Notes: a model not told the origin generated them from the sequence alone. DNA of 64,000 bases from Acidobacteriota bacterium (GCA_009691245.1 SHUM01000004.1:9032-73031), one strand, 5' to 3'; counted from the stretch's first letter, positions 4,595 through 61,508 are shown. A program made the numbers and translations.

Positions 4595-4618
4595 TTACAA
4601 GGGACCAAGGAGATAGAG

Positions 4619-13015: not shown

Positions 13016-13100
13016 ACATCCTCCCGAATTCCCGCACCAAAATGTGGCCCCGTATGCCCCCGATTGTAAGCCCCCGCAGCGCCCCCGCGCAAGCCGTTTC

Positions 13101-13134
13101 CTGACCACGTGCCACGCGCGCGGCTCTGTCACGC
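13101..13134 (+). repeat. REP-like dispersed repeat copy
   Basis: CTGACCACGTGCCACGCGCGCGGCTCTGTCACGC, between the STAND gene stop and the cytochrome gene start. Confidence 0.7.
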
Positions 13135-41744: not shown

Positions 41745-43133
41745 TTACGCCGTCAACCCCGGCAGTCTACCGGTGGAGTCGCCTAGCGTGTCCAACTTGA
41801 TTCCCAACTGATCGAACAATGTGAGATACAAGTTTGCCAGCGGGGTGGCTTGCTGATAGCGGATATGATGGCCGGCCTTCAGCTTGGCGAGCTTGCCGCC
41901 CAACACGATCATGGGCAGGTTGTCGTGCAGGTGCAGGTTGCCGTCGCTGATAGCGCTGCCGAAGACGACCATGGTACGGTCGAGCAGCGACGAGTCGCCA
42001 TCGGGCGTGGCGGCCATCTTGTCGAGAAAATAGTTGAAGGTGGCCATGTGGTGCAGGTTGATCTTCAGGACTTTCGCCACCTTCACTGGATCGCCGTTGT
42101 GATGCGTGAGCGGGTGATGCGGGTCGCCAACGCCGATCTCCGGATACGCCTTGGCGCTCTGCTCGCGCGCCAACATGGTGGATGAGACGCGTGTCATATC
42201 AGTCTGGAAAGCGAGTATCTGCATGTCGAACATCAGGCGCGCATACTCGGCGTAGGTCTCCGGCACGCCCAGCGGACGCTCGATGCGCGGCAACTCGCGC
42301 GCGGATTGTTCTTCGGCCATGCCGATGCGGCGCTCCACGTCGCGCACCGCTTCCAGATATTGATCCATCTTCTGCCGATCAGTAGAGCCGAGGCCGGTCA
42401 GCATGGTCTTGGCGTCATTGATGACCGAGTCGAGAATGCTGCGGTTCTGGCGCAGACGCGCGAGGCGCGCCGCCGGGTCCAGCGAATCAGTGTCGCCGAA
42501 CAGCCGCTCGAACACTGCGCGCGGCTCGGTCTCCATCGGCATGGGCGTGGTCGGATTGCGCCACGACACCGTGTTCAGATACGCGCAACTATAACCAGCC
42601 TCGCACGTCCCCACTAGTTCGCCTTCAAAGGCCAGCTCGAGCGAAGGCAGTTGCGTTTTCTTGCCAAACTCCTTCGCGGCAATCTGGTCCACCGTGGTGC
42701 CCGCTTCCAGATCCGCGCCCTCGGTCTTCCTGGGATGCGCGCAGGAGAGGAACACGGCGCTCGCGCGCGAGTGATTCCCGACCGCGCCTTCGCCGGGCAG
42801 CAGCGCGTCGGCGTTGCGCAGCGCCAGACCGCTCAACAGCACCATGCGATCCTTGTAAGCGGCGATGGGCTCCAGGATGGGAGTCAGCGCGTAACCCGCG
42901 CCCTCGGCGGCGGGCGTCCACTTATCCATGCACATGCCGGTGGGCGAGTAGATGACGGCCAGCCTCTTCACGGCATCGGCATCAGTCATAGCCGGCACCG
43001 CCGCGAACGCCGGCGTCATGCCATCGAGCAGCGGCAGCGCCAGCGTGGCGCCCACGCCGCGCAGAAACGTCCGGCGCGGAATCGACTTTTTGAATATCAT
43101 TGCGGTCGCATTATTGTTCATGACTTTGGTCAT
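41745..43133 (-). CDS. DUF1501 (sulfatase-like) protein with Tat signal
   Basis: RRTFLRGVGATLALPLL twin-arginine motif; DUF1501 core. 4-nt ATGA overlap with the upstream DUF1553 gene. Confidence 0.85.
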   Translation of the reverse strand: MTKVMNNNATAMIFKKSIPRRTFLRGVGATLALPLLDGMTPAFAAVPAMTDADAVKRLAVIYSPTGMCMDKWTPAAEGAGYALTPILEPIAAYKDRMVLLSGLALRNADALLPGEGAVGNHSRASAVFLSCAHPRKTEGADLEAGTTVDQIAAKEFGKKTQLPSLELAFEGELVGTCEAGYSCAYLNTVSWRNPTTPMPMETEPRAVFERLFGDTDSLDPAARLARLRQNRSILDSVINDAKTMLTGLGSTDRQKMDQYLEAVRDVERRIGMAEEQSARELPRIERPLGVPETYAEYARLMFDMQILAFQTDMTRVSSTMLAREQSAKAYPEIGVGDPHHPLTHHNGDPVKVAKVLKINLHHMATFNYFLDKMAATPDGDSSLLDRTMVVFGSAISDGNLHLHDNLPMIVLGGKLAKLKAGHHIRYQQATPLANLYLTLFDQLGIKLDTLGDSTGRLPGLTA

Positions 43134-45601
43134 GGTTGGGCGGACCTCCTCATCTGAAACGGAACACTCTTGACGATGCCCATGATGATTGACGACCAGC
43201 GGTAATCGCCGGGCGCGGCGGCGCGCACAATCGAGCGCACGGCGGGCATGTCGTAATACTCAAGACCGCGGCCCAGCGCGTAGGTCATCAGCTTGCGCGT
43301 GGTGGCGGAGACCACTTCATCGCCGCGGCTGACCAGCAGGGCGCGCAACTCGGCAGGGCCGGAAAATTTTGCGCCGTCGGGCAGCACGCCCGAAGCGTCA
43401 ATCTTGGCGGCTCCCGGCCCAGTTCCCGAGGTCGTGCGGAAACGGCCAATGGCGTCGAAGTTCTCCAGCGCAAAGCCCAGCGGGTCCATGCGCGAGTGAC
43501 AACCATAGCACGCCGGGTTCTTGCGATGCTGCTCCATCGAATCGCGCACTGAAAGTGCCTGGCCGCCTTCGTCCTCCACCTTCAGAGAAGGCACGGCGTC
43601 AGGCGGAGACGGGGGCGGCGCGCCGAGAATATTCTCCAGCACCCACTTGCCGCGGAAGGTGGGCGAGGTGCGATTGGGATACGAGGTAACGGTGAGAATC
43701 GCTCCCTGCCCCACCAGCCCCATGCGATTGGGGTCGCTGAGTTTGACGCGGCGGAAGTGGCTGCCGTAGACGCCACCGATGCCGTAGTGCCGCGCCAGCC
43801 GCTCGTTGAGGAAGGTGTAGTCGGCGCGCATCAGGTCCAGCACGCTGCGATCCTCGCGCAACATGCTTTCGAAGAACATGCGTGTCTCGGTGCGAAACGC
43901 GGCGCGCATGTTTTCGTCGAACTCGGGAAAGACCTCCGGGTCCGGCACGATCTTCTCCATGTTGCGCAGGTAGAGCCACTGTCCGGCAAAGTTACTGATC
44001 AGCGCTTCGGAGCGCGAGTCGGCGAGCATGCGGCGAACCTGCTGCTCCAGCACCTTGGGGTCTTTCAGCTTGCCCTGCTCCGCGAGTTTCAGCAGAGCCT
44101 CATCCGGCCCGGTGGACCACAGGAAGAATGACAGGCGCGAGGCCAGCTCCAGATCGCTGAGGCGATAGGGCGCGCCGGGCGCGATACCCGCCGGATCGCT
44201 CTCCTGACGGAACAGAAACTGCGGCGCGACGAGCAGGCGGCGCAGCGACATGGCAATGCCGGACTCAAACGCGTTGCCGTTGGCACCCAGTGTTTGCGCC
44301 TCCTTGCGGCCTGCTTCGTAAAAATCCATGAGCGTCTGTACTTCGTGGTCGGTAACCGGGCGGCGATAGGCGCGCCGCGTCAGGCGCGAGAGAATCTGCT
44401 TCGCGCAGCCAGCCTCTTCTTCCAGTCTGGCAGGCTTGCAGGAAAGTATTGCATTGCGGCTAGTGGTGTCCCCTGACCCGGTGGCGGTGATCGGGCCGGT
44501 GATGAACACGTAGCCAATCCCCGGCAGGTCGTCAACCTGCGCATATTGCGCGCCCGCCAGCTTGCGACGGAAGGTTCCCTCCGGCAGACCGGACTTGGTC
44601 AGGAAGGAAACGCTGATCACGCGCTTGCCCGCCTTGGCCGGGAAACGGAACACCAGCCCCGCATCGGCGGTGCGCTCGTAGCTTTCTTCATCCCCGCCCG
44701 CCGGCTTGTCGTAATCCTGTCCGCCATAAGCGACAGGCTCACCTGACCGGCCGCCGTTGGTGGGGCCGCCGCCCACGGTAAAGGTATTAAGTTTTGCGCC
44801 ATCAAGGCGGACATCCATCTGGTGCGGCTGCATCAGGCCGATGATGTCGTGAACGCGGTCGCGCGCCAGACGCACTTTCAACTCATACTCACCATCAACT
44901 GGGAAGTAATGCTCCACGCCAAGGCCGCCGCGCGAGCCGAAGGGTACCAGCTCGCTGGCGCGCTCATCCTGAATCATGCGCGTGGACACGGAGTAGGCTT
45001 CCATCTCGGGGCGCATCGAGGTATCGCCCAGCGCGGTGCGCACGATCTTGCCCGCCGCGGTCAGGTAGCGCTCAAACAATGTGGGGGAGACGGTCAGCAC
45101 ATCGCCGATGTTGTCGAAGCCGTAGCTGGCGTCATCGTTGGGCAGCAGCCGCTCCGCGTTGACATCAAGACCCATCAGGTCGCGGATGGCGTTGGCATAC
45201 TCGGCGCGATTCAGCCGATGCAGCGCGGGGCGACCCGGGTCGGGGCGAGCGGCCCCGGCGCGGTCGAGTTCGCCTTCCAGATAATTTGCAAATGCGGTGT
45301 AGGTGGCCTGATCGGGACGCGGCGCGCCGGGCGGCGGCATGGTGGCCGTCTTAATCTTGATGAGAACCTTTTCAAAGTCCTCGGCGTGCTGACCGACCTG
45401 ATCGAAATTCTTGTCGGTCAGCACAAACCCAGCCGTGCGCAGCTTCTCATTGTGGCAGGTCGCGCAATACTTATTGGCCAGCGCCGTGTAGGCCGCGCCC
45501 GGCGAGGCAGGAGGGGGTGTCTGCGCCACGGAAATACACGGCGCGACAACGACAAATCCGGCAAGTACGGCACGCCGCAGCATGTTCAGTAGAGCGTCCA
45601 A
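43130..45601 (-). CDS. Cytochrome-c-like N-terminus / DUF1549 / DUF1553 protein
   Basis: KYCATCHNEKLRTAG (CxxCH); 823 aa; same architecture as 52327-54798. Confidence 0.85.
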   Translation of the reverse strand: MDALLNMLRRAVLAGFVVVAPCISVAQTPPPASPGAAYTALANKYCATCHNEKLRTAGFVLTDKNFDQVGQHAEDFEKVLIKIKTATMPPPGAPRPDQATYTAFANYLEGELDRAGAARPDPGRPALHRLNRAEYANAIRDLMGLDVNAERLLPNDDASYGFDNIGDVLTVSPTLFERYLTAAGKIVRTALGDTSMRPEMEAYSVSTRMIQDERASELVPFGSRGGLGVEHYFPVDGEYELKVRLARDRVHDIIGLMQPHQMDVRLDGAKLNTFTVGGGPTNGGRSGEPVAYGGQDYDKPAGGDEESYERTADAGLVFRFPAKAGKRVISVSFLTKSGLPEGTFRRKLAGAQYAQVDDLPGIGYVFITGPITATGSGDTTSRNAILSCKPARLEEEAGCAKQILSRLTRRAYRRPVTDHEVQTLMDFYEAGRKEAQTLGANGNAFESGIAMSLRRLLVAPQFLFRQESDPAGIAPGAPYRLSDLELASRLSFFLWSTGPDEALLKLAEQGKLKDPKVLEQQVRRMLADSRSEALISNFAGQWLYLRNMEKIVPDPEVFPEFDENMRAAFRTETRMFFESMLREDRSVLDLMRADYTFLNERLARHYGIGGVYGSHFRRVKLSDPNRMGLVGQGAILTVTSYPNRTSPTFRGKWVLENILGAPPPSPPDAVPSLKVEDEGGQALSVRDSMEQHRKNPACYGCHSRMDPLGFALENFDAIGRFRTTSGTGPGAAKIDASGVLPDGAKFSGPAELRALLVSRGDEVVSATTRKLMTYALGRGLEYYDMPAVRSIVRAAAPGDYRWSSIIMGIVKSVPFQMRRSAQP

Positions 45602-45769
45602 ATCCGGCCTCCAGACACAGGCATACTCGCTCTGATTCTAGCAGAGCTTGAGCGCGCGTGAGAGCATGATTTCTTGGCTCACCATGAAAGCCACACCCGC
45701 TGGAGTGCGGCCCGCAGCAAGCAAAAGGGCCTTCCGGAGAAGGCACTTTTGCTGGTTGATGAGTTTTAG

Positions 45770-48700
45770 TTAGAAGTTCAGCTTCAGACCAAATTGAATC
45801 TTCCGCGCATCGCTGCGGGTGCGGTCGATGGAGCCGGCCGCGGGAGGCCGAGCCGCCGCCACGCCGGGAAGAGGAGCGTTTTCCGTAGCGGTGAACACCG
45901 TGCGGCCCGCGACGGGAATATTGAAGTTGGGGTGGTTAAATATATTGAACATCTCGAAGCGGAAATCGAGCCGACCGGACTCACCGAGGATGGGCGCGTT
46001 AAACTCCTTGGCCAGCGACAGGTCCAAGTTCACCTGCCCGGGGCCTTGCAGGAAGTTGCGCGGAGATGTTCCCAGCAAGCCCACGTTCTGTACCGTGAAT
46101 GCCGAGGTATCAAAGTATTTATCCGGCCCGCCCAGGATGATGTCCTCCGGCGTGCGACCGGGGACGATGTCCGGACGATCCGCCACGCCCGCCGATACCA
46201 GCGAGCGGGAGCGGTTGCCGCTGAGCAGCGGAGTAAATGGCAGGCCCGACTTGGCGCTAAAGATGCCACCTAAACGCCAGCCGTTGGTAACTACGCCAGC
46301 GATCCCGCTCATCTCCGGCAGCGGCAGCCGGTATAGACCGTTCACCGTCCAGTTATGCCGCGTGTCGGAATCGGACGCGCCTTTATCATAAGCCGGGTTG
46401 TCCGGGTCGAGGCCCGTGTTGCCGGCGCCGCCCGCTTCTCCGCCCTTTTGACCCTGCGTGGTGTCCAGCGCCTTGCTGAAGGTGTAGGAACTTTGCATCT
46501 GCAGGCCGTTGCCCATGCGCTTGTTCACCGTCATCTGGAAGCCGTTGTACCAGGAATCCGCTGCCGCACTCTTGAGCTCGATCTCGGCCCAATTCGGGTT
46601 AAGACGCGGATCACCGATCAGCCAGCACTTCGGCCCATCGGTTACATAAGTCTGTCCTGCTGGACGCGCCACGCAAGTTCCGTTCAGCGGAATGCCGCCG
46701 GGGACCACCGGGTTGCCTTCCTTGGTCTGATAGAGATTAATGCCGCGCGTGCCCACGAACGCCGCCGACACTGAGAAGCTCGCCGGTAGCTGACGCTCGA
46801 CAGTGAGGTTGTAGTGCAGCATGTGCGGCTGCTGTAGATTGTAATCCGTGATGCGCGCGCCGCGGGCTTGCAGCGCCGACGCCAAATTGGGTCGGGGGAA
46901 GGCCACCACAACGGCTGGGGTGGTTGCGCTGGCATTCGCTGCGGTAATGGTCGAGCGGCTGGCGAAGGGAGGCGTGCCGGTGGCCGCTACCTGCGCCGCA
47001 GCCGCCATGTTGGCGATGTCGTAGAGCAGGCCGAAGCCGCCGCGCACGGCCATCCTGGCATCGCCCTTGGGATCCCAGGCAAAGCCAAAGCGCGGCCCGA
47101 AGTTCTTTTTGGAATTATTGTGGAACAGTTCGGGTGAAATAATGGTCAGCCGATCACGAGTCACATCAGCAAAGTGCGAGCCGCGATCATTCTGTTCGTT
47201 CACCGAAGTGTGCGATTCATAGCGCAATCCCAGATTCAACGTCAGCCGCGGCGTTACCCGCCAGTCATCCTGCAGGTAGAACCCCAGCGTGTACCAAGCG
47301 TAATGCTTGTAAGTGTTCGAGCCAGGAGTTTCCGAACCGAACGACTGCGGAATCCCGTTCAGAAAATTCGTGATGTTGGAAAACGCGTAGCTTCCCCGGC
47401 GCGAAGTGGTCGGCTCGGTGAAGACGTGGTAGCGGTTGATCAGCGTCCCGAACTTCCAGGAATGCGACCCGGCAGTGTAATAGATGTCATTGCTCAGAGT
47501 GTAGAGGTTCTGATTGAAGACAATCCAGGGAGTCGATGGGCCAATGCCCGTGACGCCGCTGCCGGGTGCAATGCCACCCAGGCCAAAGCCGGGGAGAAAT
47601 TCCAGATTGGGGTCTTCATAAGTCGCGGAATCGAACCGGCCAAACGTGCGGCTGAAGGAAGCGCGAACCTGATTGAGCAGGACAGGCGAAAACGTGTGGC
47701 TCTCGGCAACGGTCAGAAACTGCCCGCGGCTGTTGCCGAAGCGCGGGAACTCCGGCCAGTTCTCCGCCGAATCGACCAGGGCGTTGTCCGAGATGGTGTA
47801 GCGTGTGAACATCGAGTCGGTCTCGGAGAAGGAGTGGTCCACGCGGGCCTGGCCGAAGTCCTCGCGGGTCGGCTGCTTGAAAACGTAGATGTACCGACCA
47901 ACGCCGCTCAGTTGATTAGGATCGCTCGGCAGCGACCCGGTGGGCAGCGGATAGAGGTTCAGGTATGGCCGAACAGCGGCATTGATCGTGGGAACCAGGC
48001 CTCCGTTTTGACGGGCGGCTGCGGTGGGTGTCGCCAATACTTTGGTATCGCCGAGCCGTTCGCGGTTGCCTTCATAAGTTAGAAAGAAGAACGATTTGTC
48101 CTTGATCACCGGCCCGCCAACTGCGCCGCCGAAGTTGTTGCGGCGGAAGGCCGGGATGCGTGGGTCAGTTAAGGGATTCACAGGTTTATAGAAGAAATTG
48201 CTGGCGTCCAAATTGCTGTTGCGCAGGAACTCGAACATGGAGCCGCGGAAGCGATTCGTTCCGCTCTTGGTGGCGACCGTGATCTGGCTGCCCATGGTCA
48301 TGCCGTATTCAGCGGGGAACGAGTTGGTGATGACGCGGTATTCCTGAATGCCTTCGATGCCCAGCATCGAGCCGGTTACGCTGACGCCGGTGAGGCCCTC
48401 GGCGGAAGCCATGTTCGCGCCATCGAGCGTCATGAAGTTCGAGCGGATCGGCGCGCCATTGCTCGAGAACACCAGCCCCGTGCCTGTGCTGGAAGTGCTG
48501 GAGGTCTGCTTATGAACATTGATGCCGGCTTGCAGCAGAACTAGTTCGTTGAAGTTGCGGCCGTTCAGCGGCAACTCCTGCACGCGCTGCTCATTCACCA
48601 GACCGCCGACCGCGCCGGAGGTGGTCTCGATCAGCGGCGCTTCCCCCGTGATAGTAACCGCTTCGGCCACCGAGCCGACCGCCAGCGAAAAGTTGATCAC

Positions 48701-49039
48701 CGACTCCTGGCCGATGGCGACAACGATATTCTGCCGAATCTGTCCGGCGAACGCGGGGGCTTCCGCCTTGACGTCGTACTCGCCCACCGGCAGCGCGGGC
48801 ACCACATAGCGGCCTGTGCTGCCCGAGACGGTGGAGCGCACCAGGCCTGTATCCCTGTTGGTGGCGGTGATGGCTACGCCGGGAATGACGGCGCCGCTCG
48901 CATCATGCACGCCGCCGGCGATGTTGCCCACAGGCAATTGCGCGCGTAACTCGCGCGGGCTGGCCAGCAGCAAAATTCCCGCCAGCATCAGAATCGCGCC
49001 GGTAGTTCCCCACTTGGCAAATCGTTGCCCCATATTCAT
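45770..49039 (-). CDS. TonB-dependent receptor with N-terminal carboxypeptidase-regulatory-like domain
   Basis: Signal peptide, CarbopepD_reg-like N-terminus, plug, 22-strand barrel, C-terminal KIQFGLKLNF. Confidence 0.85.
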   Translation of the reverse strand: MNMGQRFAKWGTTGAILMLAGILLLASPRELRAQLPVGNIAGGVHDASGAVIPGVAITATNRDTGLVRSTVSGSTGRYVVPALPVGEYDVKAEAPAFAGQIRQNIVVAIGQESVINFSLAVGSVAEAVTITGEAPLIETTSGAVGGLVNEQRVQELPLNGRNFNELVLLQAGINVHKQTSSTSSTGTGLVFSSNGAPIRSNFMTLDGANMASAEGLTGVSVTGSMLGIEGIQEYRVITNSFPAEYGMTMGSQITVATKSGTNRFRGSMFEFLRNSNLDASNFFYKPVNPLTDPRIPAFRRNNFGGAVGGPVIKDKSFFFLTYEGNRERLGDTKVLATPTAAARQNGGLVPTINAAVRPYLNLYPLPTGSLPSDPNQLSGVGRYIYVFKQPTREDFGQARVDHSFSETDSMFTRYTISDNALVDSAENWPEFPRFGNSRGQFLTVAESHTFSPVLLNQVRASFSRTFGRFDSATYEDPNLEFLPGFGLGGIAPGSGVTGIGPSTPWIVFNQNLYTLSNDIYYTAGSHSWKFGTLINRYHVFTEPTTSRRGSYAFSNITNFLNGIPQSFGSETPGSNTYKHYAWYTLGFYLQDDWRVTPRLTLNLGLRYESHTSVNEQNDRGSHFADVTRDRLTIISPELFHNNSKKNFGPRFGFAWDPKGDARMAVRGGFGLLYDIANMAAAAQVAATGTPPFASRSTITAANASATTPAVVVAFPRPNLASALQARGARITDYNLQQPHMLHYNLTVERQLPASFSVSAAFVGTRGINLYQTKEGNPVVPGGIPLNGTCVARPAGQTYVTDGPKCWLIGDPRLNPNWAEIELKSAAADSWYNGFQMTVNKRMGNGLQMQSSYTFSKALDTTQGQKGGEAGGAGNTGLDPDNPAYDKGASDSDTRHNWTVNGLYRLPLPEMSGIAGVVTNGWRLGGIFSAKSGLPFTPLLSGNRSRSLVSAGVADRPDIVPGRTPEDIILGGPDKYFDTSAFTVQNVGLLGTSPRNFLQGPGQVNLDLSLAKEFNAPILGESGRLDFRFEMFNIFNHPNFNIPVAGRTVFTATENAPLPGVAAARPPAAGSIDRTRSDARKIQFGLKLNF

Positions 49040-49288
49040 GATTCGTTCCCTCGTTTCTTAAAATCGTTGACGTCGGCGCGCCAATTCCGCACGCCCAATG
49101 TCGAGCGCCAGTTTTGGCGCACCGCCATTTCGTCCGGCCTATTTCCATGTCCCTATTTAACTCAATGTTAAACCCAACCAAACTGCTCACTGGACAGGAT
49201 TTAATCACACCGGGGAGGGCATGTCAATAAATTTAGGTGAATTAAATTAAAGGAGAAGGGCTGACGTGATTGGAAATGGTCACGAAAA

Positions 49289-50890
49289 TTATTCGCCGGA
49301 ACGGTCGCGATACTTGCCGGTGAACGGCGTTGCGCCCAGCTTCAACAGCATCTCAATTGTCTTCTTCTGCTCGCGCCCGGCGCGAAAGCGGTCATCGTAG
49401 CGGCCACCGGCCAATTGCCGGTAGATCAGACCTTCCGGATCGCCCATGGCGATGGAAATTGGCGTCTGTCCGTACATGTCCTTGGCGTCCAAGTTCGCGC
49501 CCTTGGATGCGAGGAATTCAATCACGGAAGTCCAGCCGAGATAAGTCGCCGCGTGCAGCGCGGTGCGCCCGTCTTCCTTGGCCGCGTTCACGTCCCCGCC
49601 CAGATCAACCGCCACCTTCAGCGCTTCCAGCGCCGCAGCTTCGCTGCGCATGTTGCGATCGGTGCCAAATCCGGCGGCAATCATCACCGGAGAAACATTT
49701 TCGGGTGTGGTAGTTTTGGGATCGGCGCGACCCTCGACCAGCACACGCATTGCGGACACATCGGCAGAAGCCGCGGCCAGCATGTACGGGGTGATGCCGA
49801 TCAAACTCAACTGCGGGTGATCGTTGCCGATGGAGCGGGCGATGGGCGCGTAATCGTAGGGGGGGAAATTCTTAAGTATCTTCGCGTTGGGATCGGCACC
49901 CTTCACCATCAGCGACTTTACCAACTCGGGCATGTTTTGTTTGGTCCAACCGAAGCGGTCGGTATCGGAACGCGTGGCGCCATCAATGGCCTGAATGCCG
50001 GCAACCAGCGCGTAGTGTAGCGCGGTTATTCCATAAGCGTCGGTCGCCTTGGGATCAGCGCCTTTCTCCAGCAGAAATAGCGCAACCTTCTCATGCCCAC
50101 TATGCGTGGCCACCACCAGCGGCGTGCCGTCTTCGGTCGAGGCATCGTCCACTTTGGCGCCAGCCGCGATCAGCATCTGCGCGGATTCCAGATCGCCCTG
50201 CCGCGCGGCGAACAGCAGCGACGTAAATCCGCCGGTGGTCTTCGGAAAGTACACACCCGCCTCGTAACTGCCGCCGAAAATGTTGGAGCTTTCAATGACG
50301 TAAGGGTCGCGATTGGGAATGATTTTCGAGCGGGCATGGACGCTTGCGCCACCGTCTACCAATGCGCGCACCACCGCAGGATGCCTTTCCGCCACGGCCC
50401 ACATCAGCGCGGTCTGGCCTCTCCTCTTCTCGGCGGCGCTGCTATCCGCGCCCTTGGCCAACAAAGCCTTCACGCCTTCAACCGTGCCGGTGCTGGAGCA
50501 GGTCATCAGCGGCGTCTCGCCCGTGATCTGCGCGAGGTTCGGATTGGCACCGGCCTTCAGCAGCGTCGCAACCATAGCCGCATTGCGGTTGGTGCAGGCC
50601 AACGTGAGTGGAGTAACGCCGTAGTCGTTCGCGGCGCTGACGTTCGCTCCAGCGCGGATCAGCAACTCCACCGACTCGGCGTCGTCGTGATGCACCGCCC
50701 ATGCCAGCGGTGTCGCGCCATCGGGCCGCGCTGCGTTCACATCCGCTTTGGCATTGAGCAAAGCTTTGATCGCCACTCGGTCGCCGCGCTCGGTGGCTTC
50801 CACCAGACGGAAGTCATCCGCAGCCCCGAACAAGCGCTGTGCGGTGGCGGCCAGGCAGAACAAACTAGTCAGGAAGATTCGATTGCGCAT
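49289..50890 (-). CDS. Secreted ankyrin-repeat protein
   Basis: At least 10 ANK repeats (GxTPLxxAxxxGHxxxVxxLLxxGA); signal peptide. Confidence 0.85.
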   Translation of the reverse strand: MRNRIFLTSLFCLAATAQRLFGAADDFRLVEATERGDRVAIKALLNAKADVNAARPDGATPLAWAVHHDDAESVELLIRAGANVSAANDYGVTPLTLACTNRNAAMVATLLKAGANPNLAQITGETPLMTCSSTGTVEGVKALLAKGADSSAAEKRRGQTALMWAVAERHPAVVRALVDGGASVHARSKIIPNRDPYVIESSNIFGGSYEAGVYFPKTTGGFTSLLFAARQGDLESAQMLIAAGAKVDDASTEDGTPLVVATHSGHEKVALFLLEKGADPKATDAYGITALHYALVAGIQAIDGATRSDTDRFGWTKQNMPELVKSLMVKGADPNAKILKNFPPYDYAPIARSIGNDHPQLSLIGITPYMLAAASADVSAMRVLVEGRADPKTTTPENVSPVMIAAGFGTDRNMRSEAAALEALKVAVDLGGDVNAAKEDGRTALHAATYLGWTSVIEFLASKGANLDAKDMYGQTPISIAMGDPEGLIYRQLAGGRYDDRFRAGREQKKTIEMLLKLGATPFTGKYRDRSGE

Positions 50891-50959
50891 CGTAATAAGA
50901 AGGCGGGGGTTGCCCCCCGCGCTTCGGTTTGAAAGGGTCTCACAGAGTAAACGTGTTCG

Positions 50960-52330
50960 CTAGACAGTCGTCAAATCCAGTTTGCCGGTGGCGTCGCTGT
51001 ACTTGGCATCGAGCCATCCATCTACGGAGACGCCGGCGATATCCATCACCGACAGCAGCACGTTCGAGAACGGCTGCCCGGGGAAGCGCAGGTGGCGATC
51101 ACCCTTCAGCTTGCCGTGCGCGCCGCCGACCAACATGACCGGAATGTTGTTGTGGATGTGGAAATTGCCATCGCTCAAGCCGCTGCCGAACAGCACCAGC
51201 GAGTGATCGAGCAACGTCCCATCGCCATCCGGCGTGTTGCGCAACCGCTCAATGAAGTGCGCGAACAACTGGGCCTGGAACAGGTCAACTTTCGCCACCA
51301 GTTCAATCGTCTCGGGAACTTCCTTGTGGTGCGAGAGCGGGTGATGGCCGTCGCCTACCCCAATCTCGCGGAAGGTTCGGTCGGTTTGCTCGCGGCCCAT
51401 CATCATGGTGGTGACGCGCGTCAGGTCCGACTGGAACGCCAGCACTTGCAGATCAAACATCAGCTTGGCATGCTCGGAGTACTTCGCGGGAATGCCCGCG
51501 GGCCGCTCCAAGTTTGATTTGCCAGCCACGGTGGGTTGACCCTCGGCGGGCTCATCGGATTTTTCGGCCACCTGAATGCGGCGCTCAATATCGCGTATGG
51601 CATCGAGGTACTCGCTCAACTTCGCGCGGTCACCCGATCCGATGCCGCCCATCATGCGCGAGACACCGTCGCTAACGGAGTCCAGAATGCTGCGCTCTTT
51701 CTGCATACGGCGAGCGCGAGCGGCTGCGTCGGCTGAATCGGTATCACCATACATGCGCTCGAACACGGCGCGCGGATTGATCTCCATGGGCAGCGCCGTC
51801 GCAGCGCCACGCCAGGAAATGGTGTTCATGTAATAGGCGCCGTAGCTGCCGTCGCTAACAGCCGTTTCAGGCGCGTCGAGAGCCATTTCGAGCGACCCGA
51901 GCTGCGTTTCCTTGCCCGCCTCCCGGGCGATCATCTGGTCCATCGACACTCCGAGCGCCCCGCCGGGCTTCGGATGCAAACCCGTAAGGAAAGCGGCGGC
52001 CGGGCGCGCGTGTACCCCGCCAGGCTCGTTGCCCACCGCGTCGGCAGCCTTGATGTTCAGGCCCGTCAGCACCGTGAGCTGGTCCTTAAAGGGAGCCAGC
52101 GGCGCGAGGGTAGGGGAGATTTCAAAACCCACACCATCGGTGCGCGGCGTCCATCTGGACATGATGCGGCCATTGGGCACGAAGACGGTCGCCACGCGCA
52201 GGGGCTTCTTGCCCGTGTCGTTCACCGCTGCCATCGCTGGCGACATGCTATCCAGCATAGGCAACGCCAAGGCGGCACCCGCTCCACGCAGGAATGTACG
52301 ACGGGGAATGGCTTTCTTGAATATCATCAT
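50960..52330 (-). CDS. DUF1501 protein with Tat signal (paralog of 41745-43133)
   Basis: MMIFKKAIPRRTFLRGAGAALALPMLD; ATGA overlap with the upstream gene. Confidence 0.85.
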   Translation of the reverse strand: MMIFKKAIPRRTFLRGAGAALALPMLDSMSPAMAAVNDTGKKPLRVATVFVPNGRIMSRWTPRTDGVGFEISPTLAPLAPFKDQLTVLTGLNIKAADAVGNEPGGVHARPAAAFLTGLHPKPGGALGVSMDQMIAREAGKETQLGSLEMALDAPETAVSDGSYGAYYMNTISWRGAATALPMEINPRAVFERMYGDTDSADAAARARRMQKERSILDSVSDGVSRMMGGIGSGDRAKLSEYLDAIRDIERRIQVAEKSDEPAEGQPTVAGKSNLERPAGIPAKYSEHAKLMFDLQVLAFQSDLTRVTTMMMGREQTDRTFREIGVGDGHHPLSHHKEVPETIELVAKVDLFQAQLFAHFIERLRNTPDGDGTLLDHSLVLFGSGLSDGNFHIHNNIPVMLVGGAHGKLKGDRHLRFPGQPFSNVLLSVMDIAGVSVDGWLDAKYSDATGKLDLTTV

Positions 52331-54798
52331 AGCTCTTTCGACCTCCTCATTAAAAACGGCTGACTCTTTACGATTCCGGTAATCAGGGCCGACCAGCGGT
52401 ATCCGCCGGGCGCGGCATCTCGCAGAATTTTGCGCACCGACGCCATATCATAATACTCCACTCTGCGTCCCAATGCATAGATAAGCATCTTCTCAGTCAC
52501 GGTGTTCATGAACTGGTGGGGATTCTTGAGCAGCGTCTCGCGAAACTCCACAGTGCCGTTGATCGGGGTTCCGTCGGGCAGCACGCCGGTGGCGTCAATG
52601 GGCGGGTTGCCATCGCCAAATGGGCTTTCGGTGCGCCACTTGCCGATGGGATCAAAGTTCTCCATGGCGAAGCCGATGGGATCCATCAGCTTGTGGCAGC
52701 TAATACAGGCAGGATTGGCGCGGTGCTGCTCCATCTGCTGCTTCAAGGTCAGCGCCTTGCCTTCCTTGCTCTTGGGTTGCAGATCGGGAACATTTGGTGG
52801 CGGCGGCGGCGGCGGCGTGCCCAGCAAATTCTCCAGTACCCACTTGCCGCGCACCACCGGTGAAGTCCGATTGGCGCGCGAAGTCAGCGTCAAAATGCTG
52901 CCTTGGCCGAGCAAGCCGCGGCGAGTGTTGAAGGCCGCGTCCGCCAGAGAAACCTTGCGGAAGTGGCTGCCATAGACGTTGGGGATGCCGTAGTGTTTGG
53001 CCAGCCGCTCGTTCACATATGTGAAATCGGCGCGCAGCATATCCAGGACGGAGCGGTCCTCGTGCAGCATATCGGCGAAGAACAGTTCGCTCTCGCGCTC
53101 GAATCCCTCGCGCAGGTTGTCATCATAATCCGGGAACATATCCGGGTCAGGCGAAAGCAGCTTCAGGTTGCGCAGGCTCAGCCACTGGCCGGCGAAGTTG
53201 CTCACCAGCGCCTCGGCACGACGATCCGCCATCATGCGCTTCACCTGCTGGTCGAGCACACCGGGGTCCTTCAGCTTGCCCTTTTCGGCGAGTGCGATTA
53301 ACTCTTCATCGGGAATGCTGGACCACAAAAAAAATGATAGCCGAGAAGCGAGTTCCAGATCGCTAACCGCGTAAGGCTTGCCCGTCGCCGCGCCCGTGGG
53401 ATCCTGCTCCACGCGGAACAGAAACTCAGGGCCAGCCAGGATGCGTTGCACGGCAAGCTGAACGCCTGCTTCAAAGCCGCCGTCCTTGGTGCCTTCGACA
53501 TAAAGCTTCATCAGCGGATCAATCTCGCCGGCCACCACGGGACGACGATAGGCGCGGCGCGCCAGCGTGGAGATGATCTTGCGCGCGCAAGGCTCCTGCT
53601 CAGCGGCGCTTTTCGGGGCGCAGGAGAATATCTTTTCGCGGCTGGCGGTCTCGCCCGAGCCTTTGGGCGCAAACGGTCCCGTGATGGTAACCGAGGCCAC
53701 GGCCGGATTGCCGCCACGATACTGGCCCAGGTCGGCATAGAGCAGCGGCGGCGTGTACACGCCCTCGGGCTTCGAGTTTTCCATTAGGAACGCAACGCCC
53801 ACCAGGCGCGCGCCTGCCTTCATGGGGAAGCGCGAAACCAGCGCATCATCGGCGGAATATTCGTAGTCCACTTGCTTGGTGTCGCCGCGATAGTCCGGAT
53901 CATTGCGCGAGAAGATCGGACCGGAGCGACCGCGGTATTCGCCGCCAATCGTGAACAGCTTCACGCGCGCGCCATCCACGCGAATGTCGAGCGGATGCGG
54001 ATCGCGCAGCCCGCGAATGTAGCCGTCGTTGTTGCGGACCAGCTTGATGCTGACCTCGTACTCGCCATCGAGCGCGAAGTTGTGGCGCACGGCAAGTCCG
54101 CCGCGCGAGCCGAACATCAAGTCTTCGCTGGCGCGATCCTCCTGCACCACCAACTGCGGAGTTTCGTAGGTAACGCCGCTGGGCTTCTGCGTGGGATCGC
54201 CCACGGCCATGCGACTGATCTTGCCCGCCGCAAGCATGTAGCGCTCCATCAGCACGGGAGAAACCGAGAGCACTTCCCCAATGTTATCGAATCCATGCTC
54301 GATATTATCAGGGGGCAGCAACGATGCAGAGTCAATCTCCATGGCTAGCAGATCACGGATGGCGTTGGTGTACTCGGCACGATTCAAACGATGCACGCTG
54401 GCAGTTCGCCCAGGATTCGCATTGGCTGCGGCGGCCTTGTCGAGCGAAGTCTCCAGATACGTGGTGAATGCGGTCAGCGTCGCTTTGTCAGGGCGCGGCG
54501 CGCCTCCCGGAGGCATTTGTCCGGCACGCAATTTTTTGACGGCCGTTTCCCAAATCTGCGCGTCGCGGGAAACATCATCAGCGTCAGCCTTATCGAGCGA
54601 CAGGCCCGCGGTGTTGAGTTTTTCATTATGGCAGGTAACACAATAGCGGCTGACCAGCACGCGATGCGGCGAAACTGGCGCAACAGCGGCAGGCTGTTGC
54701 TGCGCTTGGCTGGATGCGCTCGTGGCCAGCGCCACCACGATCATCGCCACCTGAAAATTCCGTCTGATATTCATCAACAACCTTCGGCCTTCGGCCAT
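52327..54798 (-). CDS. Cytochrome-c-like N-terminus / DUF1549 / DUF1553 protein (paralog of 43130-45601)
   Basis: RYCVTCHNEKLNTAG; 823 aa. Confidence 0.85.
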   Translation of the reverse strand: MAEGRRLLMNIRRNFQVAMIVVALATSASSQAQQQPAAVAPVSPHRVLVSRYCVTCHNEKLNTAGLSLDKADADDVSRDAQIWETAVKKLRAGQMPPGGAPRPDKATLTAFTTYLETSLDKAAAANANPGRTASVHRLNRAEYTNAIRDLLAMEIDSASLLPPDNIEHGFDNIGEVLSVSPVLMERYMLAAGKISRMAVGDPTQKPSGVTYETPQLVVQEDRASEDLMFGSRGGLAVRHNFALDGEYEVSIKLVRNNDGYIRGLRDPHPLDIRVDGARVKLFTIGGEYRGRSGPIFSRNDPDYRGDTKQVDYEYSADDALVSRFPMKAGARLVGVAFLMENSKPEGVYTPPLLYADLGQYRGGNPAVASVTITGPFAPKGSGETASREKIFSCAPKSAAEQEPCARKIISTLARRAYRRPVVAGEIDPLMKLYVEGTKDGGFEAGVQLAVQRILAGPEFLFRVEQDPTGAATGKPYAVSDLELASRLSFFLWSSIPDEELIALAEKGKLKDPGVLDQQVKRMMADRRAEALVSNFAGQWLSLRNLKLLSPDPDMFPDYDDNLREGFERESELFFADMLHEDRSVLDMLRADFTYVNERLAKHYGIPNVYGSHFRKVSLADAAFNTRRGLLGQGSILTLTSRANRTSPVVRGKWVLENLLGTPPPPPPPNVPDLQPKSKEGKALTLKQQMEQHRANPACISCHKLMDPIGFAMENFDPIGKWRTESPFGDGNPPIDATGVLPDGTPINGTVEFRETLLKNPHQFMNTVTEKMLIYALGRRVEYYDMASVRKILRDAAPGGYRWSALITGIVKSQPFLMRRSKEL

Positions 54799-55041: not shown

Positions 55042-57333
55042 CTAGCGGATCGTTATGTGAATCCCGCCTCGCACTTGAAAGGGCGTGCCCAGCAAATCGA
55101 CTGGCGAACGATTGGTGATGATCTTCGCATCGTTGAGGTTCTCAATCGCGACAAAAAGTCTGGCGAACTCGCCCAGCCCGCGCGAAACGTGAGCGTCAAG
55201 TTGAAAGAAATTCGGGAGCACCACGCTGTTGAGATCGTCATCAAATTGCTCGCCCACGAAGCGGCCAATGAGCGAAACACCGACGCGTTGCGGAAGCCGG
55301 AAATCACCAGCCAGCGTGAAGCGATGCCTGGCCACCTGCGGCAGGTTCTTATCGATCAACGAGACGTTCAGTTGCGGGTCAGCGTTGAACTTCGTCACTA
55401 CACTGCCATTCCACAGATACGTCGCGCTGGCTTTCACTGCGGAGACAGGCTGCCACGTCGCGCTCGCCTCCAAGCCCGCCACGCGCACCGCGCCGAGGTT
55501 TTGGCGCTGGCGTGTAATCAGCGCTGGTGTGTTTGACAGCGTTACGTTTGACACGGGCGCATCCAGAAAATTCCAGAAGCCAGTGAGGCCCAGCCGCGCT
55601 TCAGACGACACCGGGAAGCGCGCGCCGAGATCAAAGCCCGTGTTGCGCTCCGGCTGCAGCGCGCTGTTCGCGGTGGTCAGCACGGTGCCCACGCGGAAGT
55701 CGCGGTAGAGTTCGTTCAACGTCGGCGCGCGGAACGAGCGATACAGCGAACCGTGCAAGACCATTTGCGGCAACGCCTCGAAGCTAAATCCGCCGCGCGG
55801 ACTGAACACCGTCTCCGTGTTGGCTTTGAGCGCGCGTATCGCTGGCGATCCCACTACGAAGGAACCGGTGCGGCCATTGAAGTTTCGGAAGAAGTCCACG
55901 CGCCCGCCCACCACCAGCGCGAAACGCGGCGAGACTGTGAAGTTCTCTTCCGCGAACAAGCCGAAGGTGGATTGCTTGCCACCGCCGTAGCGCACTGAGG
56001 CGAAGCGGCCCGCAGTGAAGATGTTGTCGGTGCTCTGTCCGCTGACGATCCAGAGATCTGTACCACTAACCAGACTGTGCCGTCCCCGAGTGGCGAACCA
56101 CACCAGCGACGCGCCGCCCTCGGTGGACGGCACGTGCTGCTGACTGGCCAGCGTTTCCGTGTTGCGACCCGCGGCGACCGTGGCGGCGGTGCTGCCGAAG
56201 ATGGTGCGGCGGAAGAAGGCGCGCGTCTCGATGCGGTCGGAGGAGGAGGGCGAGAACTGGAAGCCGGTGGAGGCGTCGAATGACACCGTGTCGTTGTTCT
56301 GGAGCGGCGTGCCGTTGGCGCGATCTTCATTGAGCAGCCCGCCTTCGAGCGTCCACAGCGTGCCGCTGGCGGCGCGCTCCAGCTGGAACCGCGCGGCCTG
56401 ATGGCGCGAGTTTGAGGCGATGTCCACCGCGCCGCGCTGCGACTCGCGCACCTGTGTCCAACCATTGAAGTCGAATGCAGCGGCGCTGAACGCGAGGCCC
56501 CAGTCGCCGATGCGATGCGACGCGTAGAGGTCGCCCTTCAGCGCGCCGCGGCTGCCGCCCTGTGCTTGAAACTCAATGGTGGCAGGCGTGGGAACGCGCT
56601 TCAGCAATTGGACCACGCCGCCCAGCGCGTAGTTGCCGTAGAGCGCCGAGCCGCCGCCGTTGACCAGCTCCACCTGCTGCAGGCTCAACGAGGGGATGCG
56701 GTCCCAATAGACCCAGCCGCCGAAGGCGTCGTTGATGGGGATGCCGTCGGCCAGGACCAGCGACCGTGACACGCCGCTCGGCCCGATGCCGCGCAGCGAA
56801 ACGCCCTGCGTGGTGGGATGCGCGATGAGGCTGCTCGACCGCCGGAACAGCGAGAACTCGGGCAGGGTACGCAGGCGGTCGTCGAGGGACTGGTAGGGAC
56901 TCGCGCGCAGGTCTTCCTCATCGAGCACGCGGACCTCGGAGATGGAGTTTACCACTGGCAAAGGGAGCCGGCTGGCGGTTACCGATACGGCCTCGCTGAA
57001 GGCCTTCAGTGACACGGAAATTTCAGAATTATCGGAAGTATCCAAAGTGCAAACTTTCAGCTTTTGGGGTGGAAACGGAGCCGCCACCACCAGCAACTCA
57101 TGGCAGCCCGCGGAAACATCGGAAAACTCCACAACGCCCAAATCATCGGTTGTTGCGGAATTGACCACCAGCCCGTCGCGCAGCAAAGTGACTTCCGCGT
57201 CTCGCAGCACCCCGCGCGGTCCGGAAATTGTGGCGCGAATCGTCCTGGCCTGAGGGGCCGCCTCGCCCGTCGCCGCCCACCCGATCAACCCCGTGGCGGC
57301 CAAAGCAAGCACCAGCGGTTTGGGAATCCGCAT
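55042..57333 (-). CDS. TonB-dependent receptor with N-terminal carboxypeptidase-regulatory-like domain
   Basis: Signal peptide MRIPKPLVLALAATGLIGWAATGEA (start moved from the ORF-track 57447 to this Met); plug and barrel. Confidence 0.8.
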   Translation of the reverse strand: MRIPKPLVLALAATGLIGWAATGEAAPQARTIRATISGPRGVLRDAEVTLLRDGLVVNSATTDDLGVVEFSDVSAGCHELLVVAAPFPPQKLKVCTLDTSDNSEISVSLKAFSEAVSVTASRLPLPVVNSISEVRVLDEEDLRASPYQSLDDRLRTLPEFSLFRRSSSLIAHPTTQGVSLRGIGPSGVSRSLVLADGIPINDAFGGWVYWDRIPSLSLQQVELVNGGGSALYGNYALGGVVQLLKRVPTPATIEFQAQGGSRGALKGDLYASHRIGDWGLAFSAAAFDFNGWTQVRESQRGAVDIASNSRHQAARFQLERAASGTLWTLEGGLLNEDRANGTPLQNNDTVSFDASTGFQFSPSSSDRIETRAFFRRTIFGSTAATVAAGRNTETLASQQHVPSTEGGASLVWFATRGRHSLVSGTDLWIVSGQSTDNIFTAGRFASVRYGGGKQSTFGLFAEENFTVSPRFALVVGGRVDFFRNFNGRTGSFVVGSPAIRALKANTETVFSPRGGFSFEALPQMVLHGSLYRSFRAPTLNELYRDFRVGTVLTTANSALQPERNTGFDLGARFPVSSEARLGLTGFWNFLDAPVSNVTLSNTPALITRQRQNLGAVRVAGLEASATWQPVSAVKASATYLWNGSVVTKFNADPQLNVSLIDKNLPQVARHRFTLAGDFRLPQRVGVSLIGRFVGEQFDDDLNSVVLPNFFQLDAHVSRGLGEFARLFVAIENLNDAKIITNRSPVDLLGTPFQVRGGIHITIR

Positions 57334-57430
57334 AATCTTGAAAATTTGAAAAGTCTGGAAAATTTGGCGCATACATTCCCGATCCGGTCTGACTAATTTC
57401 GTCCCCGATTTTCCCCTCCTTTTCCTATGA

Positions 57431-57811
57431 TTAACGTGCCCTGGCAATGAGCGAAGCCCCTTTGGCCTCCGTCTCTTCCGGGTTGATGTTAGTTAGCCAA
57501 GCCCTGGCAATCAAAACAGCTAACGGATCACGATCATAACCGATGGCTTTGTGACCTCGCAGCTTTGCCGCTACCAACGTTGTGCCCGAACCTGCCATCG
57601 GATCAAGCACTCGAAGTTGTCGCGACGATAGGTCAGGCAACTCATCCCAGACTATTTCCGGGGCCATCCGAGCTGGGAATGGATGAATGGGTTTTATGAC
57701 CATAGTCATGCTTGCGGGATGTTTCCCTTCGTACAGTAGTCGACCTGATTCTAGCATTTTAAAATTGGGGATAGTACCGGAAACCGGGGGCAGCCAAAAC
57801 GTTCTCCACAT
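57431..57811 (-). CDS. DNA N4/N6-methyltransferase C-terminal fragment (orphan remnant; probable pseudogene)
   Basis: HPFPARMAPEI...VLDPMAGSGTTLVAAKLRGHKAIGYDRDP matches the C-terminal AdoMet-binding (motif I, FxGSGTT) region of N4/N6 amino-MTases. No DPPY catalytic-motif region anywhere upstream. Confidence 0.55.
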   Translation of the reverse strand: MWRTFWLPPVSGTIPNFKMLESGRLLYEGKHPASMTMVIKPIHPFPARMAPEIVWDELPDLSSRQLRVLDPMAGSGTTLVAAKLRGHKAIGYDRDPLAVLIARAWLTNINPEETEAKGASLIARAR

Positions 57812-57873: not shown

Positions 57874-57940
57874 CATCCGCAGATTACACAGATTGCGCCG
57901 ATGCTTTTCGCTCTGCGGAATCTGTGTAATTTGTGGATAG
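57874..57940. repeat. Inverted dyad of motif family S (CATCCGCAGATTACACAGATTGCGCCG -10nt- CTCTGCGGAATCTGTGTAATTTGTGGAT)
   Basis: Seen directly. Confidence 0.6.
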
Positions 57941-61200: not shown

Positions 61201-61508
61201 TTGATCCCTGCGCGTTCCGCCTGCCGGAGGCCGGATATTTCGGCAATCTCGGCCGCAACACCATCATCGGACCCCCGCTGACCAATGTGGACTTCAGCGT
61301 CCTGAAACGCTTTGAGCTGCCGCGCGAAGGTCTAAGCCTGCAATGGCGCACCGAGGTCTTCAACCTGTTCAATCACGCTAACTTCTTCAGCCCCAACCGG
61401 ACCATCTTCTCGACCGCCGATGGCGTGGCGCGCAGCGACTTCGGGCAGATTCGCTCGACGCGCACCAGCGCGCGGCAGATTCAGTTCGGGTTGAAGCTGC
61501 TGTTCTAG
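58245..61508 (+). CDS. TonB-dependent receptor with N-terminal carboxypeptidase-regulatory-like domain
   Basis: Signal peptide, CarbopepD_reg-like N-terminus, plug, barrel, C-terminal RQIQFGLKLLF. Confidence 0.85.
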   Translation: MKTMQATPGSLRWTGVRAAMLSILLGVMLAALAPAKLSAQSAGTISGTVRDESSAVLPGVEVVMRNVETGFTRTVATDAAGRYSAPQLPLGQYEVRASFTGFKTEVRSGLTLTVGREAVVELILKVGSVAETVEVTGEAPLVETTNSAVAGLVSDQQVRDLPLNGRSIEQLAILQLGVTLSRNGNTGMFSGSVTRINIGGARTTSNSFLLDGTDINDIWNNTPGSVAGVSLGVDTIREFKVLVNNYSAEYGRAGGGVVLSVTRSGTNELHGSAFEFLRNSALDARNFFDRDSLFPSKVTDPPPFRRNQFGFTLGGPIKTDKTFFFGSFEGLRQNLTTTQFSRVPSARIRAFAHPTVAPYLALLPLPAPNAPEGADGTVEYVGQVREPIDENYMMVRADHSFSSSDSLFGRYTFDNANKFTPNIPNTLALADRSRNQYLTIEENHIFSPAWLAVFRAGYNRSVSEEACPRQVEIPSSLDLIPGRPFASSGGITPGSGIVGLSNCGTSPQGNWYNLLEGSTDMTFIRSGHSLKTGVIGKNIRVNKRGEANQSGSYTFTSLFNFLGISNLAGTPLANGPTSSLFTGQLPLDANTSRSWRQELIGTYIQDEWKATSKLTLNLGLRYEVVTAPSEAFGRGSSLLNPQADRNVKVFGKEPFLPNLSKKNFAPRIGFAYDPTGSGRTVIRGGGGIFYDQILPATYQIAVLRNPPFYVRASITNPPWPNAYQLLLAGVDPGSQALNNFTPSSSPRTMQYNFGVQHQFAGGWVANMLYLGSRGMHLISARDANSALPQIQQDGRYFFPLNAVRRNPNFGEIVNYTTDGNSNYNSLGLGINKRFSQGFQLQGSYNWSKLIDNTSGQYAPETASGSRSLMNPDDPRVDRSLSAQNVGQNLVGNVTYELPLGAGASGIAAQLIHGWQLNSIVTLSSGVPVNLELGFNRARNAQVTGTGFQQRPDLVSGSSNNPTDGASIGCAGGFAAGTPLGTPDLYVDPCAFRLPEAGYFGNLGRNTIIGPPLTNVDFSVLKRFELPREGLSLQWRTEVFNLFNHANFFSPNRTIFSTADGVARSDFGQIRSTRTSARQIQFGLKLLF

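Follow-up and report, generated by a model that had tools for sequence, protein, structure and literature searches.

The 64,000-nucleotide stretch of an Acidobacteriota bacterium that we analyzed here (GCA_009691245.1, SHUM01000004.1:9032-73031; called the window below, with positions counted from its first letter) carries on its minus strand two copies of a gene pair that encodes an exported two-haem c-type cytochrome of the DUF1592 type and a DUF1552 (HXXSHH) protein with a twin-arginine translocation (Tat) signal. Our main finding is that, across a large clade of bacteria from soil and freshwater (chiefly Acidobacteriota, with some Proteobacteria), the pair has a conserved third partner, an exported ankyrin-repeat protein, and we consider it very probable that the three genes form a functional unit. 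By ORF (open reading frame) scan and Pfam, the triad in the window consists of the cytochrome C2 (52327 to 54798, 823 amino acids [aa]), the DUF1552 protein U2 (50960 to 52330, 456 aa), and the ankyrin protein ANK (49289 to 50890, 533 aa), and the second pair consists of the paralogs C1 (43130 to 45601, 823 aa, same domain order as C2) and U1 (41745 to 43133, 462 aa). The cytochrome-DUF1552 pair is known, widespread, and uncharacterized, and the new element is the exported ankyrin as its third member; the literature that we searched makes no mention of an ankyrin linked to PSCyt or DUF1552 modules.

The link between the ankyrin and the pair was seen from both sides. In a forward census of 80 genome loci, the best matches to one query, with U relatives of 46 to 51% identity and six-frame ORFs labeled by the window proteins, an ankyrin ORF lay no more than 700 bp from 70 of 77 cytochrome-DUF1552 pairs. 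The loci came mostly from Vicinamibacterales, Bryobacterales, and other Acidobacteriota, with a few Proteobacteria. The ankyrin was downstream on the same strand in 41 of the 70 cases, upstream and divergent in 19, and upstream on the same strand in 10; three of the seven pairs without one are at contig ends that leave no room for it, and a single locus (L078 in our numbering) had no called cytochrome ORF. Unbiased all-against-all clustering of 83 loci gave the same three families, with U in 81, C in 78, and ANK in 75 loci, while the next genuine family was found in 22. The census ankyrins align with ANK over approximately 490 aa at approximately 40% identity, those of the pairs are about 440 to 560 aa long, 64 of 69 have a signal-like N terminus, and the signal is followed by a conserved start, DLRL(V/I)DA...VNA.Q.DG.TAL.WA. 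Gene calls with precomputed Pfam annotation confirmed the triad in closer relatives, and an ORF scan with translation of an unannotated megaplasmid from a cultured Novosphingobium revealed the same C-U-ANK order with a U protein that is 41% identical.

The reverse test used 80 metagenome loci that were picked solely by ankyrin similarity (34 to 63% identity). C or U genes were present in 51 of them, directly adjacent in 44 and at 1.1 to 1.5 kb in 7 more, and the other 29 gave no information, as their flanks were too short or 1.5 kb or more was visible on one side only; wherever both flanks could be seen for at least 1.5 kb, C/U were present. The association has a boundary, which from these comparisons would fall at about 34 to 40% identity to U2: a pair at 40% has an ankyrin neighbor, and none was found for the pairs at 30 to 34% in Planctomyces SH-PL62, Chondrinema, Sphingobium, and a planctomycete-like contig. 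These distant members also differ in their cytochromes, which have 536, 640, or 1212 aa or are split into two genes. In a tree, the ankyrin-linked DUF1552 proteins make up one clade relative to the ankyrin-less outgroups, and the distribution of the four gene orders matches the subclades. The initial annotation of the locus had treated the ankyrin as cargo bracketed by the two pairs, a view that the censuses and the ankyrin identities given below overturn: the C2-U2 unit includes it as a conserved third gene.

That the duplication is an assembly artifact, or that the adjacency of the ankyrin reflects chance or hitchhiking, has next to no probability and is contradicted by the data. Besides the tandem layout itself, nothing was found that speaks for it. 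At the protein level, C1 and C2 share 53% and U1 and U2 share 46% identity, the similarity of the copies in DNA is limited to 71 to 76% identity over stretches of at most 134 nucleotides (nt), and independent ENA and Logan assemblies have the same gene order, so neither a recent duplication nor near-identical copies made by assembly collapse or expansion can account for the two pairs. The adjacency, in turn, is retained across four gene orders and several phyla and emerges from the forward as well as the reverse test. The question of whether the pairs are recent duplicates or distinct subfamilies, which was raised at the outset, is answered in favor of the latter: orthologs of U2 in other genomes are 56 to 85% identical to U2 and only about 48% identical to U1, U1 has orthologs of its own at 68 to 95%, and a neighbor-joining tree puts U1 and U2 in different subclades that each have members from other genomes. 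Judged by these comparisons, the two pairs go back to an old duplication or were acquired separately.

The ankyrin of the window is 53 to 76% identical to ankyrins beside U2-type pairs and 42 to 45% identical to those beside U1-type pairs, which are shorter (466 to 480 aa) and convergent with U. Since ankyrin identity tracks the type of pair, ANK belongs to C2-U2. Orthologs of U1 with 71 to 82% identity are followed by such a convergent ankyrin gene of 466 to 480 aa, and in the relative L090 the order is ANK (76% identity), TBDR1 (the TonB-dependent receptor-like gene described below; 73%), C1 (75%), and U1 (82%), with a second, convergent ankyrin of 469 aa after U1. The window instead has ispG, on the other strand, in the place after U1, and no second ankyrin ORF was found in the 64 kb. 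The window thus appears to hold one complete triad, C2-U2-ANK, and a C1-U1 pair that has either lost its cognate ankyrin or uses the neighboring one; ANK may act in trans on C1-U1. Relatives at 68 to 71% identity have C-U-ANK without a second pair downstream and with a different, divergent receptor, and the tandem layout, which is shared with L090 (proteins 73 to 82% identical), is therefore lineage specific.

The large proteins had been identified as DUF1553/DUF1549 proteins, and this assignment does not hold, as neither has a match to PF07587 or PF07583 at an E value of ≤0.01. Instead, each has all five of the domains PSD3-PSD5-PSD4-PSCyt3-PSD2 (DUF1587/1595/1592/1588/1585), in this order, above the Pfam cutoff, together with a weak N-terminal match to cytochrome c. 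The N-terminal CxxCH motif that had been noted is present in both 823-aa ORFs (C46/C53), and a second, previously unmentioned CxxCH lies at residue 698 in both C1 and C2. C53xxCH, C698xxCH, and a Met-Pro-Pro motif at M95 are invariant across 60 sequences, and from the two invariant CxxCH motifs, haem attachment to C is predicted. In a fold search with the predicted structure, only the central beta-sandwich gave matches, to carbohydrate-binding modules (CBMs) of families 6, 35, and 36 (CBM6/35/36), and the large helical body found no solved relative. Orthologs of C1 with 61 to 75% identity are present in L087, L089, and L090. NCBIfam has no model for C or U and gave no family-level match for ANK, for which the Pfam matches are strong (Ank_2, 187 bits; Ank, 174 bits). 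The earlier description of ANK as a secreted protein with 10 repeats is right about the signal-peptide-like N terminus but not about the number, which is approximately 11 to 12, with 11 repeat starts of the TPLH type.

The partner proteins were likewise misnamed: U1 and U2 have no match to the DUF1501 family (PF07394) and match only PF07586 (HXXSHH/DUF1552), with 316.4 and 303.8 bits relative to a gathering score of 30. The eponymous motif is HPLSHH in U2 and HPLTHH, with a Ser-to-Thr change, in U1. In the alignment of homologs, H330, H334, and H335 are invariant, and the conserved residues are mainly histidines, with H107, H391, H393, and H413 also in the invariant set, besides Arg and Asp residues. 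We confirmed the Tat signal, with RRTFLRG (PRRTFLRGxGAxLALP) followed by a hydrophobic stretch in both proteins; the RRxFL motif (R10, R11, F13, and L14) is invariant in 60 U homologs and predicts export by the Tat pathway. The ORF of U1 has 11 residues in front of the usual start of U2 and most homologs (MIFKK...), and the true start is uncertain, although the Shine-Dalgarno spacing would favor the upstream ATG that gives the ATGA overlap with C1. The label "sulfatase-like" is correct for the fold only. The predicted structure of U has the core alpha/beta fold of the alkaline-phosphatase superfamily, shared by sulfatases, nucleotide pyrophosphatases/phosphodiesterases (NPPs), phosphoethanolamine transferases, and lipoteichoic acid (LTA) synthases. 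Compared with type I sulfatases, NPPs, and phosphoethanolamine transferases, U shows about 10% identity and has a long helical insertion at residues ~202 to 258 of the model and mainly His as conserved residues. The C/S-x-P-x-R formylglycine motif was not found in mature U1 or U2, the sole regular-expression match being SIPRR in the signal peptide of U1, and U2 has no cysteine at all.

The "planctomycete-specific" PSCyt3/PSD2-5 and DUF1552 domains were reportedly first described by Studholme et al. in 2004. The adjacency of genes for PSCyt3/PSD2-5 cytochromes and DUF1552 proteins has been noted by He et al. in 2017 (PMC5615132). The window has the domain order, the CxxCH motifs, the adjacent Tat-motif DUF1552 gene, and the translational coupling of this known pair; what its clade adds is the strictly co-inherited exported ankyrin and a cytochrome of ~820 aa. 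The initial annotation had placed the locus in a periplasmic DUF1553-DUF1501 module, and what the window holds is a sister system of it. In the PSCyt1/PSCyt2-PSD1 (DUF1549/DUF1553) and DUF1501 system too, an exported cytochrome-like multidomain protein is found beside a Tat-signal protein of the alkaline-phosphatase clan, to which DUF1501 belongs, but no protein of the window has a Pfam match to these families, and the two systems are parallel. With the families renamed, the domains, motifs, and fold support the earlier picture of a duplicated, translationally coupled, exported, and functionally uncharacterized pair of a cytochrome and a sulfatase-fold protein.

From the genes, export signals, motifs, predicted folds, and co-inheritance described above, we favor, with somewhat better than even confidence, a periplasmic redox module of three proteins, in which C and U act as a complex and the ankyrin is their dedicated partner. 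The Sec-exported C (~820 aa, two haem motifs) and U would form the complex in the periplasm, and C would pass electrons to or from a metal center in U, a repurposed phosphatase-fold subunit, while the substrate, a small organic compound that may derive from carbohydrate, might be bound with the help of the beta-sandwich of C. The ankyrin would be a dedicated binding partner, acting as a scaffold or, by analogy with the ankyrins of KatB and KatA, as an assembly or cofactor delivery factor. That C-U is a redox enzyme complex is a proposal to which we give slightly less than an even chance, and a role of the ankyrin in scaffolding or assembly rather than inhibition is suggested more tentatively still. 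The far-reaching version, in which the triad would be an unrecognized class of periplasmic oxidoreductase, with U a histidine-ligated metal redox subunit that is fed by C, whose CBM-like domain would bind the substrate, and that needs a dedicated large ankyrin assembly or scaffold factor, is speculative and on present evidence rather unlikely.

Exported ankyrins have been tied to periplasmic haem enzymes before, in AnkB-KatB of Pseudomonas aeruginosa, Cj1386-KatA of Campylobacter jejuni, and the ank-katE operon of Leptospira (PMC7567364). As in the AnkB and Cj1386 systems, the exported ankyrin gene of the triad adjoins the gene of a periplasmic haem protein. The AnkB/Cj1386-type ankyrins are much smaller and serve catalases with noncovalent haem, whereas the ankyrin of the triad has 450 to 560 aa and 11 to 12 repeats and is partnered with a c-type cytochrome and a phosphatase-fold protein. 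There is no catalase in the window, and ANK, with its 533 aa, is only an analogue of the catalase-associated proteins. A further parallel is Cbp2D of Cellvibrio japonicus, where DUF1587 and an X183 c-type cytochrome domain are combined in a proposed electron donor of lytic polysaccharide monooxygenases (LPMOs) (PMC8981238). This secreted, carbohydrate-associated protein shares PSD3/DUF1587 and a c-type cytochrome domain with C but differs in overall architecture and is without a reported DUF1552 or ankyrin partner, and the window showed no LPMO gene. In a lignocellulose proteome, a DUF1592 protein of Cellvibrio that carries a CBM2 has also been detected (PMC6004670).

The fold of U would also fit a different chemistry, in which U works as an alkaline-phosphatase-superfamily hydrolase or transferase on a substrate in the periplasm or envelope, ANK inhibits it stoichiometrically or serves as an immunity-type partner, and C only binds substrate or regulates. 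The Bdellovibrio ankyrin protein Bd3460, which protects against the cell's own secreted endopeptidases, is a model for such an inhibitor, and the range of enzymes with this fold as well as the export and strict co-inheritance of ANK agree with it. However, the missing Cys/Ser-x-Pro-x-Arg motif and the complete lack of cysteine in U2 argue against a hydrolase of this kind, the two invariant CxxCH motifs and the Met-Pro-Pro motif of C argue for working haems, extra cytochromes recur nearby, and Tat export suggests that a cofactor is loaded in the cytoplasm. We regard this alternative as improbable.

Our preferred reading of a redox module is in line with the recurrent neighbors, which point to periplasmic redox chemistry. 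In 22 of 83 loci, a pyrroloquinoline quinone (PQQ)-family beta-propeller (quinoprotein) dehydrogenase is encoded no more than 10 kb away, often directly beside ANK, and U1-type loci have a small cytochrome c upstream of the pair and a cytochrome-fused quinoprotein. In one sublineage (L135:5513-6909 and L169:~4130-5333), a small cytochrome c with two CxxCH motifs and an unknown protein of ~250 aa are inserted between DUF1552 and the ankyrin. In L084 and L085 (ENA contigs), two divergent triads are followed by more tandem ankyrin genes (two in L085 and three gene calls in L084, the middle one apparently split) and then by alternative-complex-III-like genes for a c7-type cytochrome, a molybdopterin/Fe-S subunit, and NrfD. 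Among the pairs without an ankyrin, cytochrome c' and cytochrome b561 come after a short, 536-aa DUF1592 protein and DUF1552 on plasmid pMSHV of Sphingobium herbicidovorans (L094, 6370-10516), and on a plasmid of Planctomyces SH-PL62 (L092, 3834-10081), separate DUF1587 and DUF1592 genes encode the cytochrome, with a DUF1080/3-keto-disaccharide hydrolase behind them. From the quinoprotein neighbors and the U1-type loci, the triad might be an electron transfer accessory, a dedicated acceptor or maturation system, of periplasmic PQQ-type dehydrogenases and not an enzyme itself, which we find very unlikely: in three-quarters of the loci, among them the window, such a dehydrogenase is missing from the vicinity, and the invariant His-rich phosphatase-fold subunit would be left unexplained. 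With its recurrence in 22 of 83 loci and absence from the window, the PQQ dehydrogenase was also rejected as a core component. A secreted family of ~334 aa without a Pfam or NCBIfam match (L034:19444-20448) recurs close to the triad in 19 of the 83 loci, in many cases as tandem copies and next to PQQ-type dehydrogenases.

The initial annotation had centered the locus on TonB-dependent receptors (TBDRs), with the pairs processing an imported substrate in the periplasm and the ankyrin as an accessory. Three such receptor genes are in or beside the block. TBDR1 (45770 to 49039, minus strand), an Acidobacteria-type TonB-dependent receptor-like protein, does have the described carboxypeptidase-regulatory domain and lies between the pairs; it combines CarboxypepD_reg with an OMP_b-brl_4 barrel (about 592 bits), and a Plug domain was not detected in it by Pfam. 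Of the "two more such receptors," TBDR3 (58245 to 61508, plus strand) is of the same type, being a paralog with 36% identity, 612 bits for OMP_b-brl_4, and a Plug score of 21.7 bits relative to a cutoff of 23.9. TBDR2 (55042 to 57447, minus strand) is a different, classical receptor with a weak CarboxypepD_reg match, Plug (62.9 bits), and a TonB_dep_Rec barrel (131 bits), and its NCBIfam matches, to subfamilies of hemin, B12, and siderophore receptors, are all below cutoff; its real start is probably the ATG near 57333 (MRIPKPLV...).

Conservation of the receptors is patchy. The order TBDR2-C2-U2-ANK is kept in a relative with a cytochrome that is 78% identical, and ANK-TBDR1-C1-U1 is kept in L090, where the ortholog of TBDR1 (73% identity) has the same position. 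In 11 of 80 related loci, a TBDR-like ORF is found within 10 kb, in 9 of the 11 within about 1 kb of a core gene. An ankyrin/TonB insertion as such is therefore not what relatives conserve: the ankyrin is kept with 70 of 77 pairs and the receptor in only 11 of 80 loci. The conserved orders, the close spacing where a receptor is present, and the CBM-like domain of C are compatible with an importer locus, which may be possible for this lineage. However, the small number of loci, the different or divergent receptors in relatives at 68 to 71% identity, the strong hairpins that part TBDR1 from C1, the lack of a riboswitch or other RNA clue to a substrate in the window by Rfam, and the incorrect family names on which it was built make the importer-centered reading weakly supported and of low probability. 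Acidobacteria, moreover, carry very many such receptors. We rejected a TBDR as a general core component; the receptors are recurrent minority, lineage-specific accessories and not the organizing principle of the locus.

Several points weigh against the periplasmic redox module that we prefer. The census loci are dominated by Acidobacteriota, and adjacency is not obligatory, as the C1-U1 pair of the window has no ankyrin beside it. The correlation of the distance matrices, with r(U,A) of 0.76, r(C,A) of 0.82, and r(U,C) of 0.86 (Mantel test, 0/999), fits co-inheritance but is confounded by shared phylogeny, and the neighbor counts of 11 of 80 for TBDRs and 22 of 83 for PQQ dehydrogenases are raw counts. 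The model of U is of moderate quality (predicted local distance difference test score [pLDDT], 73.5), and the link of U to phosphatases is structural only: phmmer and profile hmmsearch of DUF1552 against the PDB gave nothing meaningful, and hhalign of the family profile against arylsulfatase A gave a probability of 0.3%. From the order of strand, loop, and helix in the model, His107 of U would, tentatively, occupy the nucleophile position of the superfamily. The analogy with AnkB and Cj1386, where b-type haem is delivered, is imperfect, as c-type haems are attached by the cytochrome c maturation (Ccm) system. Finally, the function of the cytochrome-DUF1552 pair is unknown according to He et al. 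(PMC5615132).

All ORF coordinates of the initial annotation match our ORF scan of the window, and its statement that all genes are co-oriented is true of the seven on the minus strand, which in the order of transcription are TBDR2, C2, U2, ANK, TBDR1, C1, and U1, but not of the receptor at 58245, TBDR3, a divergent neighbor outside the co-oriented block. We also confirmed the ATGA overlaps of 4 nt at both C/U junctions, and at both an AGGAGG lies 11 nt 5' of the start of U. Two strong adjacent hairpins occupy the gap between TBDR1 and C1 (45685 to 45753, minus strand; minimum free energy, -40.1 kcal/mol; z = -4.66), and 0 of 200 shuffles fold as well; they are probably a terminator or processing site, which would make C1-U1 a separate transcription unit. 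The 69 nt that separate U2 from ANK contain a GC-rich hairpin with seven G-C pairs (50903 to 50920, minus strand); it is weak (z = -1.84) and may be an attenuator or an mRNA-stabilizing element. With the strong hairpins at the one gap and the weaker one at the other, the block therefore probably comprises several transcription units. A scan for promoter and terminator consensus sequences gave counts not above shuffle expectation, and by folding, the hairpins between TBDR1 and C1 alone were significant; Rfam at gathering thresholds found only one tRNA in the window.

Beyond U1, the housekeeping genes uppS, cdsA, dxr, rseP, and ispG are on the opposite strand, and the locus therefore ends at U1. 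At the other edge, upstream of TBDR2, there is a truncated N6/N4 DNA-methylase fragment (57433-57711, minus strand, 92 aa) with a DPMAGSGTT motif and 29.8 bits for PF01555, adjoined by an inverted repeat at 57875-57938 with 27-nt arms that are 85% complementary and a 10-nt loop; the two features resemble a scar left by recombination or the remnant of a mobile element. Just past TBDR3, at 61705-63060 (plus strand), is a short-chain fatty acid transporter (AtoE/SCFA_trans), which is also found upstream of a U1-type triad (L089:4731-6083), a recurrence that may be coincidence. Elsewhere in the window we noted further periplasmic redox proteins, namely a CytoC_RC-like multihaem cytochrome (8337-9419, plus strand) and a Vgb-lyase-type beta-propeller with a weak N-terminal haem-binding match (11456-13132, minus strand); Vgb-lyase/CarboxypepD_reg proteins recur near triads in other genomes. 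A STAND-type protein with TIR/SEFIR, NB-ARC, and TPR domains (13182-15191, minus strand) has an architecture that is typical of anti-phage or innate-immunity-like NTPases. Among the public records with acidobacterial-type triads, three metagenome-assembled genome (MAG) contigs labeled "Klebsiella pneumoniae," "Heliomicrobium sp.," and "Bordetella sp." (L004, L046, and L081, respectively) are probably misbinned or mislabeled.

In conclusion, the annotation of the locus is corrected in that its families are renamed and TonB-dependent receptors are no longer its organizing principle. DUF1552 and its cytochrome partner are one of the large "planctomycete-specific" mystery families, with 16,978 DUF1552 clusters at 50% identity (E value of ≤1e-3), for which there has been no functional lead for about twenty years, and the tie of a whole clade to an ankyrin gives it a testable handle in the form of a predicted three-protein periplasmic complex. 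The triad of the cultured Novosphingobium sp. KACC 22771, at approximately 943.3 to 948.5 kb of plasmid NZ_CP117882.1, is a candidate for such experiments, as Proteobacteria are usually genetically easier than Acidobacteria. If true, the oxidoreductase reading would explain in biochemical terms what some members of a family of ~17,000 clusters do, one that is abundant in soil Acidobacteria.

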